NCBI GenBank assembly: GCA_035604035.1
Contig: DATNJF010000404.1
Coordinates: 10,853 to 74,852 of the forward strand
Direction of reading: 5' to 3'
Source of the DNA: Stellaceae bacterium
GTDB lineage: Bacteria; Pseudomonadota; Alphaproteobacteria; ATCC43930; CGMCC-115725
DNA length: 64,000 nucleotides
Shown here: one piece after another, positions 2,644-14,129 of the stretch
How positions within the stretch are numbered: the first letter of the stretch is position 1
Layout: every line of letters starts with the position of its first letter
The notes under the pieces: model-generated
What the model was told of the DNA's origin: nothing
Seen by the model: only the letters and a program-made list of their open reading frames with translations
Databases searched by the model: none
Program-made: the position numbers and the translations under genes

Positions 2644-3714
2644 TCACCCCAACAGCTTCGCAACGCCCAGCTCGCCGGCCATCTTGTCGAGCGCGGCCCT
2701 CAGCGAACCGGGGATCGGGATGCCGCTCTTCGTGCGCTCGGCGATGCGGGCGGCGCGGTCCTCGCCCGGCAGGCGAATGCGATCGAAACCGGGCAGCAAG
2801 GCCGAGCCGTGCAGCTGGCGGATGACGTTATCGACCTGGCGCTTGAACTGGGTGGGCTCGGCAAAGCGCTTGATGTCGAGGACGCAGATCGCCTGGCCGG
2901 TGTTGGTCGGCGTCGTGTCGTCCTTGTTGAAATCGACCACGTCCTCGCCGTTCGCCGCACCGTTCAGCGTGCCGGCCAAGAGCCCGAACATTAGCGACAT
3001 CGCCGCGCCCTTGTAGCCGCCGATCGGCAGCAGGAACCCATCGTCGGCGCGGTTGGGGTCGGTGAGCGGCTGGCCCTTTCGGTCGACCATCCAGCCCTCG
3101 GGCATGGTCTTGCCCTGCTGCGCGGCGACCTTGACCTTGCCGTAGGCGGCGACCGTCGTCGCCATGTCGAGGATGAGCGGCGGCTCCTCCAGCGCCGGCA
3201 CCGCGATCGCCAGCGGGTTGGTCGAGAGCAACATGTCCACGCCGCCCCAGGGCGGCAAATGGTTGGCGTTGCCGACCGCGAAATAGATGCCGATCATGTC
3301 GTGCGGCACCGGCATCGCGGCATAGACCACGGCGGCGCCGGCATGGTTGCCGTGCCGCGTCCCGGCCCAGCCGACCCCCTGCGTGCCGGCGATCTCGATC
3401 GCGGTCTCGACCGCGCGCGACACGACGAGCGCGCCAAGTCCGTTGTCGCCGTCGACCAGCGCCGTCCCCGGAGCGGTGCGGTGGACGACGATGTTTGGCC
3501 GGGTGTTGATCCCGCCGGTCTGGATGCGGCGGACGTATTGCGGCAGGCGGAAGACGCCATGCCCATCGGCGCCGGAGATGTCCGATTGCGCCATCAGCTC
3601 GGCCGCCTTTTGCGCTTCCTCGGCTGCGATCCCGGCGGCGCGATAGGCCGAGGCGATGAAGTCGATCAACGCCGCGTGGGAAACGCGCGGCAAAACGGTG
3701 GCGTCATCGGGCAT
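2644..3714 (-). CDS. Ldh_2 family (malate/L-lactate/ureidoglycolate dehydrogenase type 2) oxidoreductase
   Basis: 356 aa. The N-terminal GADGHGVFRLPQYVRRIQTGGIN and HGNHAGA motifs are typical of the Ldh_2 family. Confidence 0.8.
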   Translation of the reverse strand: MPDDATVLPRVSHAALIDFIASAYRAAGIAAEEAQKAAELMAQSDISGADGHGVFRLPQYVRRIQTGGINTRPNIVVHRTAPGTALVDGDNGLGALVVSRAVETAIEIAGTQGVGWAGTRHGNHAGAAVVYAAMPVPHDMIGIYFAVGNANHLPPWGGVDMLLSTNPLAIAVPALEEPPLILDMATTVAAYGKVKVAAQQGKTMPEGWMVDRKGQPLTDPNRADDGFLLPIGGYKGAAMSLMFGLLAGTLNGAANGEDVVDFNKDDTTPTNTGQAICVLDIKRFAEPTQFKRQVDNVIRQLHGSALLPGFDRIRLPGEDRAARIAERTKSGIPIPGSLRAALDKMAGELGVAKLLG

Positions 3715-7698: not shown

Positions 7699-7962
7699 AT
7701 GAGCGACACGATCAATCTCTATGACGCCAAAACGAATTTGTCGAAACTGGTCGATCGCGCCGCCGCCGGGGAGGAGATCGTCATCGCCAAATCCGGCAAG
7801 CCGAAGGCCAAGCTGGTGCCCTATGAAGCTCCGCGCAAGAAACGCGTGTTCGGGCAGAACTTGCTCGGCATCACGTATATGGCGGACGATTGGGATGGCC
7901 CGCTGCCATCGGAAATCCAGCGCTACTTCGAGGGCGAAAGCGATCCTGAGGATCTCGTGTGA
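7699..7962 (+). CDS. type II antitoxin, Phd/YefM family
   Basis: 87 aa, MSDTINLYDAKTNLSKLVDRAAAGEEIVIAKSGKP. 4-nt overlap with the downstream PIN toxin. Confidence 0.85.
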   Translation: MSDTINLYDAKTNLSKLVDRAAAGEEIVIAKSGKPKAKLVPYEAPRKKRVFGQNLLGITYMADDWDGPLPSEIQRYFEGESDPEDLV

Positions 7963-8336
7963 GGCTGCTGGTCGACACACACATCTTCATTTGGTGCGAT
8001 CGACGGCCAAACGTGGTCCCTGCGGCCCTGATGAGAGCCTTGCGTGACCTAGGAAATGAAGTTTTCGTCAGCGCCGCTTCGGTCTGGGAAATCGCGATCA
8101 AACGAGCGACCGGTAAACTGGAGTTTACTGCATCCATCAACGAAACCGTCGAGCGCCTAGGTTTTGAGCTGCTGCCGATTGCAGCGACGCATGCGGAGCA
8201 TGCCGGCGGCTTGCCGCGACATCATAACGATCCGTTCGATCGGCTGATCATCGCGCAGGCGGTTCTTGAGGGGTTGATCCTCGGTACTCGCGACCCCGCT
8301 ATGCGATCCTACGGTGTCGCAACATTGGGGCTCTAG
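7959..8336 (+). CDS. vapC: type II toxin VapC (PIN-domain ribonuclease)
   Basis: 125 aa. LLVDTHIFIW...SAASVWEIAIK...HNDPFDRLIIAQA carries the PIN acidic residues. Confidence 0.85.
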   Translation: MRLLVDTHIFIWCDRRPNVVPAALMRALRDLGNEVFVSAASVWEIAIKRATGKLEFTASINETVERLGFELLPIAATHAEHAGGLPRHHNDPFDRLIIAQAVLEGLILGTRDPAMRSYGVATLGL

Positions 8337-12155: not shown

Positions 12156-13319
12156 ATGGCCCACGACGTTTTCATCAGTCATTCGCACCAGGACAAGCCT
12201 GCGGCGGACGCCGTCTGCCACCATCTCGAAGCCGCCGGAGTCCGCTGTTGGATCGCGCCGCGCGATGTCGGCTACGGCAAGAACTGGGACGGGGCAATCG
12301 TCGATGCGATAGCCGAGTCGAAGCTTGTGGTCATCATCTTCTCGGCAGCGGCCAACAACTCGGGACACGTCCTCAACGAGGTCGTGACCGCGCTGGGCGC
12401 GGGGAAGACGGTTATCCCGTTCCGCATCGACGCGGTGGCACCGACCGGCGCGCTGCTTTACCACCTCGGCCGCCTGCATTGGCTTGATGCAGAGACGCCG
12501 CCGCTGGAATCGCATATCGAGATGCTGGTCGAGACCGCACGGCGCAACCTGTCGCCAGGGGACGCCGACAGCGACAGCTCTGCTGTTCCCGTCGAGGCAA
12601 AGGGTGAAAGCCCGCGGCCGCGGGCCCCAGCGCCGCCGCCTGCTGCGAGCGTGCCCGCTCCGGCGCGCTCACGCAAGCCCATCCTCGTCGCCATTGTTGT
12701 CGCGGCGATCGTCGTGGTGGCGGTGGCAGTCGTGGTGACGCAGAGCAGGTGGCTCGGTTCATTCGGCAATCGCCAGGTGCCGACGCCGGCGCCGACAGCT
12801 CCACCGCCAGTGCCGGAGCCGTCGCCGGCCCCTGCGCCGGTCACACCGCCGCCGGCAGAGCCGAGCCCGCCGGCGGTGGCGACACCCGCACCCGCGCCGC
12901 AACCGCCGCAGCCGGCGCCAACTCCCGCTCCAGCCGTACCCGCGCCCGTCCTGCCCAAAGCCCCGACCTCGACGGCGCCGCATGACGGCATCTGGCGCGG
13001 CATCCGCTATTGTCCGGAATGGCAGGGGCACCCGGCCTTTCAGCATCCAATCGCGATGACGATCCAGAACAACGAAGCCGAGTCGATGAACCGGATTCAG
13101 GCCGGTACGCCCGGCTATCTGACGTTCGCCGGCAAGGTTGGTCCGGACGGAAAGTTGAGCCTCAACGGTTACGGTATATCGAATGGTCTTGCCGGCGGTC
13201 TCCCGCTCGGTGCGCAGTTTGAATTTGCCTTTACCGGAGTAATCTCCGGCGATGTCTTCAATGCGAAGGTCACCGGCAGTCCGCGCTCGTGCACGCTGCA
13301 GATGACCCGCGAGCACTAG
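12156..13319 (+). CDS. TIR-domain protein with a single TM helix, proline-rich linker and an uncharacterised C-terminal (predicted periplasmic) domain
   Basis: aa 1-135 form a TIR_2-type domain (DVFISHSHQDK...RCWIAPRD...VVIIFSAAANNSGHVLNEVVTA, putative catalytic Glu75). The TM helix ILVAIVVAAIVVVAVAVVVT covers aa 176-195. aa 208-275 are P/A/T-rich. aa 276-387 form a unique domain with Cys286 and Cys379. Confidence 0.85.
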   Translation: MAHDVFISHSHQDKPAADAVCHHLEAAGVRCWIAPRDVGYGKNWDGAIVDAIAESKLVVIIFSAAANNSGHVLNEVVTALGAGKTVIPFRIDAVAPTGALLYHLGRLHWLDAETPPLESHIEMLVETARRNLSPGDADSDSSAVPVEAKGESPRPRAPAPPPAASVPAPARSRKPILVAIVVAAIVVVAVAVVVTQSRWLGSFGNRQVPTPAPTAPPPVPEPSPAPAPVTPPPAEPSPPAVATPAPAPQPPQPAPTPAPAVPAPVLPKAPTSTAPHDGIWRGIRYCPEWQGHPAFQHPIAMTIQNNEAESMNRIQAGTPGYLTFAGKVGPDGKLSLNGYGISNGLAGGLPLGAQFEFAFTGVISGDVFNAKVTGSPRSCTLQMTREH

Positions 13320-13334
13320 CGGCAAATCGATGCC

Positions 13335-14129
13335 ATGAAAGAAGCCGTCGCATCCGATCTCGATCCCGTCGGGCTCACCCGAAGCGCGGAGCCCTTGACC
13401 CGAAAGCTGTCGCGGCTGGTGGCGCTGTCGCCGGCGGAAACCGAAGTGCTGCGCGAGCTGCAGTCACACGGCCGCCGCGTCGCGCGCGGCCGTGAGATGG
13501 TCGTCGAAGGCCGCAAATACGATGAGCTGCTGATCCTTCTCGATGGCGTGGCGCTGCGCTACCGCCTGCTCAACGACGGCCGCCGCCAGGTCCTCAACAT
13601 CGTGCTGCCGGGCGAGTTCATCGGCTTTCCCGGCTGCTTTTTCGAGGGCGCGCTCTATTCGATCTCGGCGCTCAGCGATTGCGTCGTCTCGCCGGTGCCT
13701 TTCACCCGCTTCCTGCGCCTGTCCGAGACCCACCCCCGGCTCGGCGCGGCGGTCTTCTGGTCGCTCAGCTGCGAAACGGCGATGTATGCCGAGCACCTGA
13801 TCGGGATTGGCCGGCGCTCGGCCTTGGAACGGGTCGCGCATTTCCTGCTCGAGATGTTGATCCGGTTGCAGGGGATCGGCCTTGCCGACGAGCGCTCCTA
13901 CCGCCTGCCGCTGACCCAGGAGCTCATCGCCGACGCGCTCGGTCTCAGCGTGCAATACGTCAACCAGACCCTGCGTCAGCTGCGCGAGGAGGGACTCGCT
14001 ACGGTCGAGCGTCAGCAGGTGACGATCCTCAATCTCGACGGCCTCGCCGCGCTCGCCGATTTCGAGCGCAACTACATCAGCCGCTCCCGCTTCGCCGAGC
14101 TCGCCGCGGAGAATTGGCCGAGCACCTAG
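13335..14129 (+). CDS. Crp/Fnr-family transcriptional regulator (cNMP-binding-like domain plus C-terminal HTH)
   Basis: 264 aa. Beta-barrel region GEFIGFPGCFFEGALYSISALSDCVV and HTH LTQELIADALGLSVQYVNQTLRQLREEGL. Starts 15 nt after the TIR gene stop. Confidence 0.85.
   Translation: MKEAVASDLDPVGLTRSAEPLTRKLSRLVALSPAETEVLRELQSHGRRVARGREMVVEGRKYDELLILLDGVALRYRLLNDGRRQVLNIVLPGEFIGFPGCFFEGALYSISALSDCVVSPVPFTRFLRLSETHPRLGAAVFWSLSCETAMYAEHLIGIGRRSALERVAHFLLEMLIRLQGIGLADERSYRLPLTQELIADALGLSVQYVNQTLRQLREEGLATVERQQVTILNLDGLAALADFERNYISRSRFAELAAENWPST

Follow-up and report, generated by a model that had tools for sequence, protein, structure and literature searches.

The gene described here belongs to a large class of TIR proteins that have the layout of a receptor, extend over bacteria and archaea and have apparently not been described before. 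It lies in a 64-kb stretch of DNA, analysed as a whole and referred to below as the window, and its product combines a TIR domain, one transmembrane (TM) helix, a Pro-rich stalk and a predicted β-barrel.

The open reading frame starts with ATG, ends with TAG and encodes 387 aa, as given by the ORF list and the translation; its limits and each of the sub-coordinates proposed in the earlier note were recovered on recomputation (Table 1). The start codon is backed by the family consensus MAHDVFIS, in which M1 is found in 82%, A2 in 90% and H3 in 90% of 120 relatives. Since the score of the TIR_2 profile is beyond chance, since the identical protein occurs on 11 independent metagenome contigs and in one NCBI MAG (Stellaceae bacterium), and since all four segments are kept in orthologues of about 45% identity (P0002, P0003, P0004 and P0123 being full-length), this frame is a genuine gene under selection and not a chance frame in DNA of 66% G+C. 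A scan of this high-G+C region for promoters and terminators was uninformative.

Table 1. Features of the TIR gene and its product, in positions of the window
Feature	Position (nt)	Strand	Basis
Whole gene: TIR, linker, TM helix, Pro-rich stalk, β-barrel	12156..13319	+	ORF list, translation, orthologues
TIR domain, predicted cytoplasmic, aa 1-135; subfamily hallmark RCWIAPRD at aa 30-37	12156..12560	+	Pfam, AF2, Foldseek
Codon of Glu75, predicted catalytic Glu; motif S69-x5-E75, 'NEVVTAL'	12378..12380	+	Conservation, ROQ1 alignment
Low-complexity linker, predicted cytoplasmic, aa 136-175; 25% Pro, 23% Ala, 15% Ser; RSRKP at its end	12561..12680	+	Composition
Single TM helix, aa 176-195 (ILVAIVVAAIVVVAVAVVVT)	12681..12740	+	Kyte-Doolittle 19-residue mean 3.59
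Stalk, predicted extracytoplasmic, aa 196-275; Pro-rich core from nt 12777	12741..12980	+	Composition
Modelled eight-stranded lipocalin-like β-barrel, predicted extracytoplasmic, aa 276-387; unnamed family	12981..13316	+	AF2, Foldseek, profile search
Invariant Cys286 (Cys pair with Cys379), at the end of strand 1	13011..13013	+	Column C13, 56-sequence alignment A3
Invariant Cys379 (Cys pair with Cys286), at the start of strand 8	13290..13292	+	Column C106, alignment A3

The TIR domain and its predicted catalytic glutamate

The N-terminal part of the protein had been assigned from the sequence to a bacterial TIR_2-type domain, and this assignment is upheld at the levels of both profile and fold. 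The Pfam TIR_2 profile (PF13676) matches aa 5-113 with an E-value of 4.7e-22 and 79.2 bits, compared to a gathering cut-off of 28. The AF2 model of the domain (pLDDT 93.3) displays alternating strands and helices, in the flavodoxin-like α/β pattern of TIR domains. A Foldseek comparison with the PDB gave 173 matches at E ≤ 1e-3, and the best 50 of these 173 are all TIR domains or TIR-containing proteins. The closest are enzymatic TIRs, with TMq values of 0.75-0.86 to those of SPARTA, RUN1, SARM1 and AbTir, and RPP1 is also among the best matches.

Glu75, which the earlier note had equated with the catalytic residue of TIR enzymes, indeed falls at the catalytic position. It is invariant in all 120 protein relatives and in all 77 genomic relatives, and it aligns with the second Glu of the ROQ1 'CLEEL' motif (residue 86 in alignment numbering), the catalytic Glu of that protein. 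A search of the PDB with a 40-aa fragment, meant to confirm this alignment, returned no match. The window protein carries all motifs of its subfamily, namely RCWIAPRD, S-x5-E and HWLDA. Furthermore, TIR cores from different phyla, archaeal ones included, share 50-71% identity, and this conservation argues for a constrained surface, either catalytic or engaged in interactions. From its sequence features, we predict that the domain is an NAD-cleaving enzyme.

The Ser-x5-Glu region and the aligned Glu are shared with SPARTA TIR-APAZ, SARM1, AbTir and the plant proteins RUN1, RPP1 and ROQ1, which also provide the best structural matches. On the other hand, the identity of these TIRs to that of the window protein is about 20%, and they are coupled to other regulatory modules (Argonaute, ARM-SAM, NB-LRR), none of them being membrane receptors. 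SPARTA, SARM1, AbTir and the plant TIRs are all activated by oligomerisation.

A TIR domain could also operate as a non-enzymatic scaffold, that is, as a homotypic interaction module similar to those of TLR adaptors, which, on engagement of the outer domain, would recruit other proteins of the cytoplasm. The TIRs of TLRs and MyD88 are also present among the structural and sequence matches, and two TIR genes of the RCWIAPRD subfamily are found together at 5 of 80 loci. We nevertheless consider this role unlikely, since about 200 relatives all have Glu at the catalytic position, since NADase TIRs are the best structural neighbours, and since the genes recurring next to the TIR gene encode SLATT and RyR proteins, implicated in nucleotide signalling in other systems, and not TIR adaptors.

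Membrane topology and the outer barrel

The hydrophobic helix reported previously corresponds to a single TM helix, which is located at the same place in 112 of 120 protein relatives and 70 of 78 genomic relatives. The linker preceding it has a family-wide median length of 48 aa, of which 64% are P/A/S/G/T/E/Q. The stalk following it, noticed before as a P/A/T-rich spacer, is Pro- and Ala-rich by composition (39% Pro and 19% Ala over aa 197-275) and differs in length between orthologues; NCBIfam gave for this region a weak match to the Pro-rich part of GltJ only.

Prediction and comparison across the family support a type II single-pass membrane protein, with the TIR inside and the barrel outside, and the separate lines of evidence agree with this orientation, as had been suggested from the window alone. 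The protein is devoid of an N-terminal signal peptide, and throughout the family K+R residues are more frequent before than after the helix (2.88 vs 1.63; bias in 73 vs 16 proteins). The C-terminal domain carries a Cys pair and has Sec-exported homologues. Finally, in some archaeal relatives the outer domain comes first and the TIR last, in the order signal peptide, TPR, TM and then TIR. The inverse arrangement, with the TIR outside and the barrel inside, as for instance in a secreted or surface NADase, would fit the weak charge bias of the window protein taken alone (3 vs 2 K/R across the helix), but it is extremely improbable: Sec cannot export a folded N-terminal domain of 175 aa that has no signal peptide, the family charge bias puts the TIR inside, the barrel, with its invariant Cys pair, also follows signal peptides, and the archaeal relatives also end up with their TIR inside.

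The resemblance to a Toll-like receptor proposed in the earlier note holds for the predicted placement of the TIR inside and the sensor outside but not for the order of domains, which is inverted, the TIR being N-terminal. Similarly to Toll-like and IL-1 receptors, the window protein is predicted to be single-pass, with a ligand-binding domain outside and the TIR inside, and ligand-induced association is the expected mode in its case too. However, the inverted order (some archaeal relatives excepted) and the lack of any LRR or Ig domain distinguish it from these receptors, and their TIR is a scaffold whereas that of the window protein is predicted to be catalytic. We regard this likeness as an architectural analogy and not as orthology, given an identity of about 20% and a correspondence at the level of the fold.

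The C-terminal domain of 112 aa is ordered and not disordered: its AF2 model has a pLDDT of 96.4 and contains eight strands according to DSSP, the strand order and the closure of the barrel resting on Foldseek matches to barrels. The best of these matches is GrlR (4kt5; TM 0.61, E 7e-4), and others include a Slam-dependent surface lipoprotein barrel, the C-domain of NHBA, Cap15 and FABP. The modelled domain would share with all of them an eight-stranded antiparallel barrel of about 110 aa, but the TM is only about 0.6 and the identity about 10%, the Pfam and PDB profile searches showed no relation at the sequence level, and the invariant Trp and Cys pair set the new family apart. Several of these barrels, among them those of GrlR and FABP, bind lipids or small ligands. 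The modelled barrel resembles such lipid- or ligand-binding barrels and is plausibly sensor-like.

The earlier description of this region as a β-rich domain with two Cys is confirmed, whereas its status as unassignable is not, since it proves to be part of an unnamed family with a predicted lipocalin-like barrel fold. An exhaustive profile search with the domain collected 89 cluster representatives at E ≤ 1e-3, and a word-indexed protein search gave only 1-3 matches. The 56-sequence alignment A3 reveals an invariant Trp and an invariant Cys pair. Cys286 and Cys379 are the only two Cys of the domain and are situated on strands 1 and 8, the first and last strands of the barrel model; they probably form a disulfide. 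Pfam yielded no match to the domain even at E 10, NCBIfam no match, its profile against the PDB noise only (E 0.16) and the BFVD viral folds no match at E ≤ 1e-3. With neither a Pfam nor an NCBIfam model for this domain, and with literature searches that found no description of a TIR-TM-outer-domain architecture, the protein does not fall into a well-annotated family. The barrel itself is used in several contexts. Of 28 small homologues, about 22 have it directly preceded by a Sec signal peptide of the classical type, and it is found beyond the TM helix of class III cyclases and of a Ser/Thr kinase (P0128, P0131, P0136, P0154, P0161, P0169; P0190), this kinase also having PG_binding_1. Fusions of the barrel to caspases occur as well.

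Distribution of the class and gene neighbourhoods

We define the class by a TIR domain with the motifs RCWIAPRD, S-x5-E and HWLDA, to which one TM helix and an outer domain are attached on the C-terminal side or, in some archaea, on the N-terminal side; these motifs are all present in the product of the window gene, together with the TM helix at aa 176-195 and an outer domain. Reference genomes contain the RCWIAPRD-type TIR subfamily in at least 572 copies, its range stretching from Alphaproteobacteria to Methanoregula, and about 90% of its members (112/120 proteins, 70/78 genomic relatives) possess the TM helix and a variable outer domain. The outer domains of relatives include WD40, Sel1, TPR, FGE-sulfatase, SH3, DUF4189, YARHG, CHASE2, TonB_C and others. 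Such variable outer domains on one TIR make up a pattern of constant output with exchangeable sensors. The same design is seen in receptor-type class III adenylate cyclases and Hanks-type Ser/Thr kinases, some carrying the same barrel beyond the TM helix; compared to these, the output of the window protein is a TIR, and a cytoplasmic HAMP or coiled-coil transmitter is absent.

Cultivable carriers include Rhizobium sp. BK251 (L063), Variovorax sp. GT1P44 (L049) and Thermoclostridium caenicola DSM 19027 (L038). Essentially no members of the subfamily occur on plasmids or in cultured phages. Among PLSDB plasmids, the full protein found no match and the TIR alone retrieved TIRs of only 27-31% identity. 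GenBank phages gave two weak matches, and IMG/VR only a 180-aa soluble TIR + SEC-C-like variant of 44% identity.

In the window, the TIR gene is flanked by a luciferase-like monooxygenase and a Crp/Fnr regulator, and its wider surroundings comprise genes for transport, metabolism and regulators, and rpmB. A PhdYeFM/PIN toxin-antitoxin pair is located 4 kb upstream of the TIR gene, which does not amount to a defence island. The Crp/Fnr-type gene (13335-14129), which encodes cNMP_binding and HTH_Crp_2 domains, starts 15 nt after the TIR stop. This gap and the shared strand suggest co-transcription in this genome, and a cyclic nucleotide made by the TIR could in principle be read by the cNMP-binding domain, leading to a change in transcription. 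A functional link of this kind is very unlikely and was rejected, as a homologue of the regulator adjoins the TIR gene at 0 of 105 other loci, including those of orthologues, which are wholly different. Alphaproteobacteria are rich in Crp/Fnr regulators, so that the two genes are likely to be neighbours by chance.

The sole recurrent neighbours in 84 loci of relatives are membrane proteins with a SLATT or an RyR domain, one or the other adjoining the TIR gene at 28 of them, mostly at less than 100 nt. SLATT proteins are present at 20 loci (SLATT_1 60.4 bits, cut-off 41) and RyR proteins at 10 (Pfam RyR, E 1e-13 to 1e-27); examples are L065 and L093 for a SLATT neighbour and L048 and L061 for a TrkA_N-RyR neighbour. 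The SLATT neighbours are about 600 aa long and have an additional N-terminal Rossmann-like domain. Pfam, NCBIfam and PDB profile searches for SLOG in this domain gave no match; on the motifs 'GVTGHR' and 'GGTG' alone, it is an unconfirmed SLOG candidate. The window gene and all barrel-carrying orthologues are solitary, and no SLATT or RyR homologue was found in the 64-kb window or at loci L007-L011 and L112. In type VII Thoeris, TIR and SLATT pairs signal via cADPR (preprint 10.64898/2025.12.03.692087), and RyR-domain proteins of phages are able to bind 2'cADPR and 3'cADPR or to cleave them (PMC13232231).

With Thoeris ThsB, especially that of type VII (TIR plus the SLATT effector ThsH, cADPR), the window protein has in common the Glu at the catalytic position, and the two-gene logic of this type is matched at those 20 of 84 loci of relatives where a SLATT protein lies directly beside the TIR. 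However, ThsB proteins are described as soluble cytoplasmic phage sensors, whereas a TIR of the window type is joined to a TM helix that bears an outer domain, and the PADLOC ThsB models match the window protein only weakly and partially. A neighbouring effector as in Thoeris (SIR2-SLOG, Macro-TM, SLATT, caspase-like and others) is absent at the window gene, though present at 28 of 84 loci of relatives. The survey of type VII Thoeris explicitly discarded stand-alone TIR genes (preprint 10.64898/2025.12.03.692087). TIR effectors of CBASS and Pycsar are fused to a SAVED, STING or cNMP-binding sensor, none of which occurs in the window protein; the PADLOC SAVED_TIR match covers its TIR part only, and the neighbours of the gene include no cyclase or CD-NTase. 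The contrast drawn initially with the soluble TIRs of Thoeris and CBASS is supported by the TM helix and the predicted outer domain.

The window gene does not share the defence-island or mobile setting of Thoeris, and a defence-island or mobile origin found no support, given its ordinary neighbours and the near-absence from plasmids and phages. The same metabolic and regulatory neighbourhoods and rarity on plasmids and cultured phages, together with the unusually conserved TIR core, would suit an envelope-anchored housekeeping enzyme that processes NAD(P)+ or nucleotides constitutively, the stalk and barrel being an anchor without a signal. This seems quite unlikely. To our knowledge, constitutive cytoplasmic NADase activity is toxic for every characterised TIR enzyme; moreover, broad exchange of outer domains is typical of sensors and not of anchors, and the barrel is also found on cyclases and a kinase. 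The toxicity of an unrestrained TIR NADase is illustrated by Dictyostelium TirC (PMC13142454).

Proposed mechanism and significance

We lean towards a one-protein transmembrane transducer, to which we grant slightly better than an even chance: a cue from outside would cluster the protein and thereby switch on NAD+ cleavage or signal production by the TIR. The TIR would stay in the cytoplasm, tied by a flexible linker of about 40 aa to one helix in the inner membrane, and a Pro-rich stalk of about 80 aa would hold the disulfide-stapled barrel in the periplasm. Since both linkers are of low complexity, a rigid conformational relay is unlikely, and the most likely switch would be proximity. The barrel could bind a ligand, plausibly small and hydrophobic or envelope-derived, or attach to an envelope structure, and the resulting clustering would allow the TIR domains to self-associate, which is a requirement for TIR catalysis. 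Once assembled, the TIRs would cleave NAD+ via Glu75, either lowering the NAD+ level or generating a signal of the ADP-ribose type, namely ADPR or a cADPR isomer. We infer the clustering mechanism, the class of ligand, the reaction product and the physiological role, the clustering switch being reasoned from the composition of the linkers and from general TIR enzymology.

Long, protease-accessible linkers of low complexity on both sides of the helix could also serve a release of the TIR: after sensing of damage by the barrel, proteolysis of the stalk or TM helix would free the TIR, which would oligomerise and deplete NAD+, in a manner resembling anti-sigma factors. There is a precedent in TirC, a TIR NADase that a single TM helix keeps in check; it becomes toxic once this helix is removed, and proteolytic release has been proposed for it (PMC13142454). 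TirC differs, however, by its N-terminal TM helix, the absence of an outer domain, its eukaryotic host and its derivation from TIR-STING-like bacterial TIRs. Furthermore, no conserved protease gene lies beside the TIR gene in the 84 loci, and neither a site-1 nor a site-2 protease motif emerged; we judge such a release to be improbable, and switching by clustering remains the preferred reading.

A wider scheme, tentative and in our view rather doubtful, would make the class an ancient and widespread group of receptor-type TIR enzymes, present in more than 10 bacterial phyla and in methanogenic archaea, that convert outside cues into cADPR-type messengers, read by SLATT pores or by RyR-domain/TrkA_N channel-like proteins. 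Such a group would be a prokaryotic counterpart both of the TLR topology and of cADPR-to-RyR signalling. The window gene would then be a member with the new barrel as its sensor, its reader being encoded elsewhere in the genome.

We know of no characterised bacterial TIR system (Thoeris, CBASS/Pycsar effectors, SPARTA, retron-TIR, AbTir-type) that senses anything other than intracellular events. If the class works as predicted, TIR enzymology would also report on the cell exterior, with NAD cleavage as the constant output and dozens of outer sensor domains that can replace one another, a design comparable to those of histidine kinases, Ser/Thr kinases and class III cyclases. The barrel family represents an unannotated module, predicted to be periplasmic, common to TIR, cyclase, kinase and caspase proteins. 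With such a class, it would become directly testable whether ADPR-type messengers act beyond phage defence, its genes being chromosomal, highly conserved and outside defence islands, and whether TIR products are physiologically sensed by the RyR domains of bacteria, as recent work on phage RyR proteins hints. It would likewise become testable whether the receptor-like layout of TLRs has a functional prokaryotic counterpart.

Layout and predicted orientation

The open reading frame proposed in the earlier note proved to be real and starts, from its ATG, with MAHDVFIS, the consensus N-terminus of the family. Its G+C content matches that of the window (67% vs 66%). The identical protein is encoded on 11 metagenome contigs (for the most part from JGI or from Logan assemblies of sequencing runs) and also in an NCBI MAG named Stellaceae bacterium, with 'toll/interleukin-1 receptor domain-containing protein' as sole annotation. 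The position of Glu75, the strongly hydrophobic helix (ILVAIVVAAIVVVAVAVVVT, Kyte-Doolittle 19-residue mean 3.59), the P/A-rich spacer (39% Pro and 19% Ala) and the C-terminal 112 aa with two Cys were all found as the earlier note had described them.

Features of the window and, by locus of the relative, neighbours of related TIR genes (SLATT-type rows are examples)
Feature	Locus	Position (nt)	Strand	Remark
PhdYeFM-type antitoxin	window	7699-7962	+	
PIN-domain toxin	window	7959-8336	+	
TIR gene	window	12156-13319	+	387 aa
Glu75 codon	window	12378-12380		
TM helix	window	12681-12740		aa 176-195
P/A-rich spacer	window	ends at 12980		aa 197-275
Crp/Fnr-family regulator	window	13335-14129	+	cNMP_binding + HTH_Crp_2; starts 15 nt past TIR stop codon
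SLATT-type	L012	4308-7943		
SLATT-type	L016	5028-6905	-	
SLATT-type	L025	4354-5982		
SLATT-type	L028	4381-5976		
SLATT-type	L040	1860-5501		
SLATT-type	L041	7732-8490		
SLATT-type	L045	2224-5943		
SLATT-type	L047	43-2841		
SLATT-type	L065	3886-5976		
SLATT-type	L074	8060-9553		
SLATT-type	L084	7969-9462		
SLATT-type	L093	3972-5981		
SLATT-type	L096	4134-5938		
RyR-type	L029	2262-3641		
RyR-type	L041	8879-10768		
RyR-type	L048	4139-5926	-	
RyR-type	L061	7258-9093	-	
RyR-type	L077	1323-5868		
RyR-type	L085	3301-5964		
RyR-type	L097	3301-5961		
RyR-type	L076			
RyR-type	L080			
RyR-type	L089			

In line with the proposed TIR_2-type domain, aa 5-113 score 79.2 bits for Pfam TIR_2 (cut-off 28, E 4.7e-22), and, judged by sequence, the query TIR is a member of this superfamily. 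NCBIfam and PADLOC models of retron-TIR, SAVED-TIR, ThsB and Argonaute-associated TIR matched through their TIR portions only. The AlphaFold2 model of aa 1-137 (pLDDT 93.3) displays the alternating strand/helix pattern expected for a TIR. Its top PDB neighbours are catalytic TIRs, among them SPARTA TIR-APAZ (TMq 0.83-0.86), RUN1, RPP1, SARM1 and the active filament form of AbTir (0.79); since identity to them is about 20%, the domain has no close solved relative. All 120 protein relatives keep Glu75; Ser69, Cys31-Trp32, Pro35-Arg36-Asp37, Trp109 and Pro116 are conserved along with it. Glu75 is also invariant in 77 full-length genomic relatives. In a profile-to-PDB alignment, it is matched to the second Glu in ROQ1 '...SSTWCLEELVKI' (residue 86, alignment numbering), the catalytic glutamate of ROQ1 and the equivalent of RUN1 E100 and SARM1 E642. 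Because of this pairing, and with such conservation, the assignment of Glu75 to the NADase catalytic position is supported at the alignment level.

The N-terminal 175 aa carry no signal peptide and, to our knowledge, N-tail export is not possible for a folded domain this large. RSRKP directly precedes the TM helix. Among 113 relatives, the 15 residues ahead of the helix contain on average 2.88 K+R vs 1.63 behind it, with the higher value before the helix in 73 proteins and after it in 16. Furthermore, among 28 small stand-alone homologues, about 22 open with a classical Sec signal peptide (AxA-type end), continue with the conserved motif 'DPFQSAPGP' and a Pro-rich stretch, and carry this C-terminal domain behind them. 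Several Methanoregula and Methanomicrobiales relatives have the reversed order of signal peptide, TPR region, TM helix and C-terminal TIR, which again places the variable domain outside and the TIR inside. Since the missing signal peptide, the charge bias, an invariant Cys pair in the C-domain, the signal-peptide homologues and the reversed archaeal order agree, we conclude that the predicted orientation is N-in/C-out, as previously proposed, rather than inverted.

The predicted C-terminal barrel and its carriers

For the C-domain, Pfam and NCBIfam gave no match, and the earlier note had likewise been unable to assign it to a family. Its AlphaFold2 model (pLDDT 96.4, pTM 0.86) contains eight β-strands, which bears out a beta-rich folded domain. 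Foldseek against the PDB retrieved small 8-stranded barrels, namely GrlR (E 7e-4, TM 0.61), a Slam-dependent surface lipoprotein barrel, the NHBA C-domain, the Cap15 barrel and fatty-acid-binding proteins; among viral predicted structures, there was no significant match. Because of the eight-strand model and these matches, the domain is predicted to be a lipocalin-like barrel without close solved relative.

An exhaustive profile search seeded with the orthologues (1.84 billion screened) yielded 89 cluster representatives carrying the C-domain at E<=1e-3. Only Trp280, Cys286 and Cys379 (query numbering) are invariant in a 56-sequence alignment, where several Gly are near-invariant. In the model, Cys286 lies at the end of strand 1 and Cys379 at the start of strand 8, that is, on the first and last strands, so that a disulfide stapling the barrel shut is plausible.

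Barrel carriers comprise many secreted proteins of ~175 aa, class III adenylate or guanylate cyclases (cyclase, TM, coiled coil, two barrels), a Ser/Thr protein kinase with PG_binding_1, several caspase (Peptidase_C14) proteins and TIR proteins. Thus, the barrel is a mobile extracytoplasmic module, repeatedly joined to cytoplasmic signalling enzymes, and its distribution among sequences would be that of a sensor or envelope-binding domain. The secreted proteins (P0125, P0126, P0134, P0138-P0140, P0143, P0147-P0150, P0153, P0160 and others) have a fixed layout of Sec signal peptide, 'DPFQSAPGP', Pro-rich stretch and barrel. The barrel profile also matches P0214, an NCBI hypothetical protein of Paraburkholderia unamae. 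Ahead of the barrel, P0132, P0184, P0159 and P0155, which include a caspase, carry a ~35-aa repeated motif 'E.LFWESVR.S.N.AELEAYLAKYPDGTFAPLARARIDAL', whose weak Pfam match to Phage_TAC_6 is probably not meaningful.

A wider TIR-TM class and its SLATT- and RyR-type neighbours

The full protein's best 120 relatives have the N-terminal TIR in common (35-73% identity) and differ in their C-terminal parts, among which are WD40 propellers, Sel1, TPR, FGE-sulfatase, SH3, rhodanese, DUF4189, YARHG, TonB_C, Bmp and CHASE2. In 112 of them, a single hydrophobic helix falls within aa 130-320. A GTDB scan (one genome per species) with the motifs RCWIAPRD and AHDVFIS[HY] confirmed at least 572 relatives. 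Of these, the best 80, whose TIRs are 50-71% identical to the query profile, are spread over Alphaproteobacteria (Rhizobium, Methylocapsa, Caulobacteraceae, Stellaceae, Xanthobacteraceae), Variovorax, Planctomycetota, Verrucomicrobiota, Acidobacteriota, Gemmatimonadota, Chloroflexota, Actinomycetota (including a Mycobacterium MAG), Firmicutes (Thermoclostridium caenicola DSM 19027), Armatimonadota, Thermodesulfobacteriota, Dadabacteria and, within Archaea, Methanoregula, Methanomicrobiales and Methanobacteriota. The TM helix is present in 70 of 78 of the best genomic relatives, whose outer parts mostly lack a Pfam match, the commonest being TPR (9), Sel1 (6), DUF4189 (4) and WD40 (3). Across the class, the cytoplasmic linker is of low complexity (median 48 aa, 64% P/A/S/G/T/E/Q).

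Five archaeal loci (L056, L076, L080, L089 and L046, from Methanoregula, Methanomicrobiales and Methanoregulaceae MAGs; TIR identity 50-54%) encode a signal-peptide-like N-terminus, a TPR-like region, a TM helix and a C-terminal TIR, the Toll-like receptor order. Two subfamily TIR genes lie within a few kb in 5 of 80 genomic loci (L030, L057, L068, L077, L083). Several MAGs hold copies at more than one locus (e.g. L028/L059, L050/L053, L046/L057), so that paralogues differing in their outer domain are found together in the same genome. Fourteen IMG/VR viral contigs (L098-L111, ~nt 2992-3535 of each) encode a 180-aa soluble relative (44% identity) made of a TIR and a SEC-C-like CPCGSGRKYKDCHG motif, without TM helix; at least two contigs (3300045988, 7000000659) are presumably from human-associated samples.

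Clustering covered every ORF of 120 aa or more in 84 subfamily loci; antisense ORFs overlapping the TIR genes were treated as artefacts. Only two neighbour families recur, and one or both occur in 28 loci. SLATT-type proteins of ~600 aa are found in 20 loci, within 100 nt of the TIR gene in 17, mostly upstream on the same strand and in some cases as a tandem pair. Each begins with a Rossmann-like domain, marked by the motifs GVTGHR, SPLAEGAD and GGTG, and has a SLATT/DUF4231 membrane region at its C-terminus; one copy scores 60.4 bits for NCBIfam SLATT_1 (cut-off 41), with Pfam DUF4231 above threshold. By its motifs, the N-terminal domain looks SLOG-like; Pfam, NCBIfam and PDB searches did not confirm SLOG. 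In 10 loci, a protein next to the TIR gene ends in an RyR domain (Pfam PF02026, E 1e-13 to 1e-27), ahead of which lie either TM segments and TrkA_N or an NTPase of AAA/STAND type. Both families are absent from the 64-kb window.

TIR+SLATT pairs have been described as type VII Thoeris, with canonical cADPR as signal (preprint 10.64898/2025.12.03.692087), and RyR-domain proteins of phages were recently shown to bind 2'cADPR and 3'cADPR or to cleave them (PMC13232231). Together with the RyR neighbours, the phage work suggests, by analogy, that TIR products and RyR domains are linked in bacteria and archaea.

The class is a distinctive, highly conserved TIR_2 subfamily. Its architecture is not a well-annotated family, no description of the class having been found in the literature searched. 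A 2020 survey calls 'group 14', the largest bacterial TIR group (box 1 PDVFISY), 'not well studied' (PMC7075850), and an E. coli survey mentions, without detail, one defensive TIR system also containing a TM domain (PMC11350192). The Thoeris survey (preprint 10.64898/2025.12.03.692087) removed stand-alone TIR genes before analysis, which may explain why the class went unnoticed.

Predicted mode of action and relation to known systems

In the window, the TIR gene follows an MFS transporter and a luciferase-like monooxygenase (41-nt gap) and is followed in turn by a Crp/Fnr-type regulator (15-nt gap), an 82-aa ORF, a histidine kinase and rpmB. The regulator is probably co-transcribed with the TIR gene. 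This order is not conserved in the barrel-carrying orthologue loci (L007-L011 and L112), which hold unrelated small ORFs; with no homologue of the regulator near the 105 other loci, its adjacency is unique among the 106 examined. About 4 kb upstream of the TIR gene, the antitoxin and toxin genes, with overlapping stop and start, form a VapBC-like pair.

TIR catalysis generally needs self-association (SARM1, plant TNLs, AbTir, TIR-STING, SPARTA). Relatives freely swap their outer domain; that of the query is predicted to be a folded barrel of ligand-binding type, probably with a disulfide, and flexible linkers lie on either side of the helix. A rigid conformational change would probably not be transmitted by either flexible linker. 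Given these linkers and the need for self-association, lateral clustering driven by the outer domain is the likely switch: clustered TIRs would come together and cleave NAD+, the output being an ADPR-type messenger or NAD+ depletion. The SLATT/RyR neighbours favour the messenger for the class, and depletion is possible for the solitary window gene. The modelled barrel fold points to a small ligand, hydrophobic or derived from the envelope, as the likely cue, and the Pro-rich stalk, at 80 residues, may be long enough to extend to the zone of the peptidoglycan or outer membrane, by analogy only with the TonB Pro-rich spacer. A proteolytic tether-and-release, a scaffolding TIR, a constitutive envelope-anchored enzyme, a pairing of the TIR with the adjacent Crp regulator and an inverted topology are rival readings, which together take up a sizeable minority of the probability.

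Under the clustering reading, the query resembles receptor-type signalling enzymes in its predicted way of working and Thoeris ThsB in its predicted chemistry. However, it is not a member of Thoeris, having neither effector neighbour nor defence-island context at the window locus, nor of the CBASS/Pycsar effectors, having neither sensor domain nor cyclase neighbour. The proposed resemblance to Toll-like receptors holds for the predicted placement of the outer domain outside and the TIR inside, but the query falls outside the TLR/IL-1R family, its domain order being inverted and both LRR and Ig domains being absent. Within the reach of sequence and structure prediction, the earlier interpretation is supported: the query is a predicted TIR enzyme built like a membrane receptor, and its putative sensor module is new and, by prediction, lipocalin-like. 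It is of value above all as a pointer to a large cross-domain class and to the SLATT and RyR partners of relatives, through which the idea becomes accessible to experiment.
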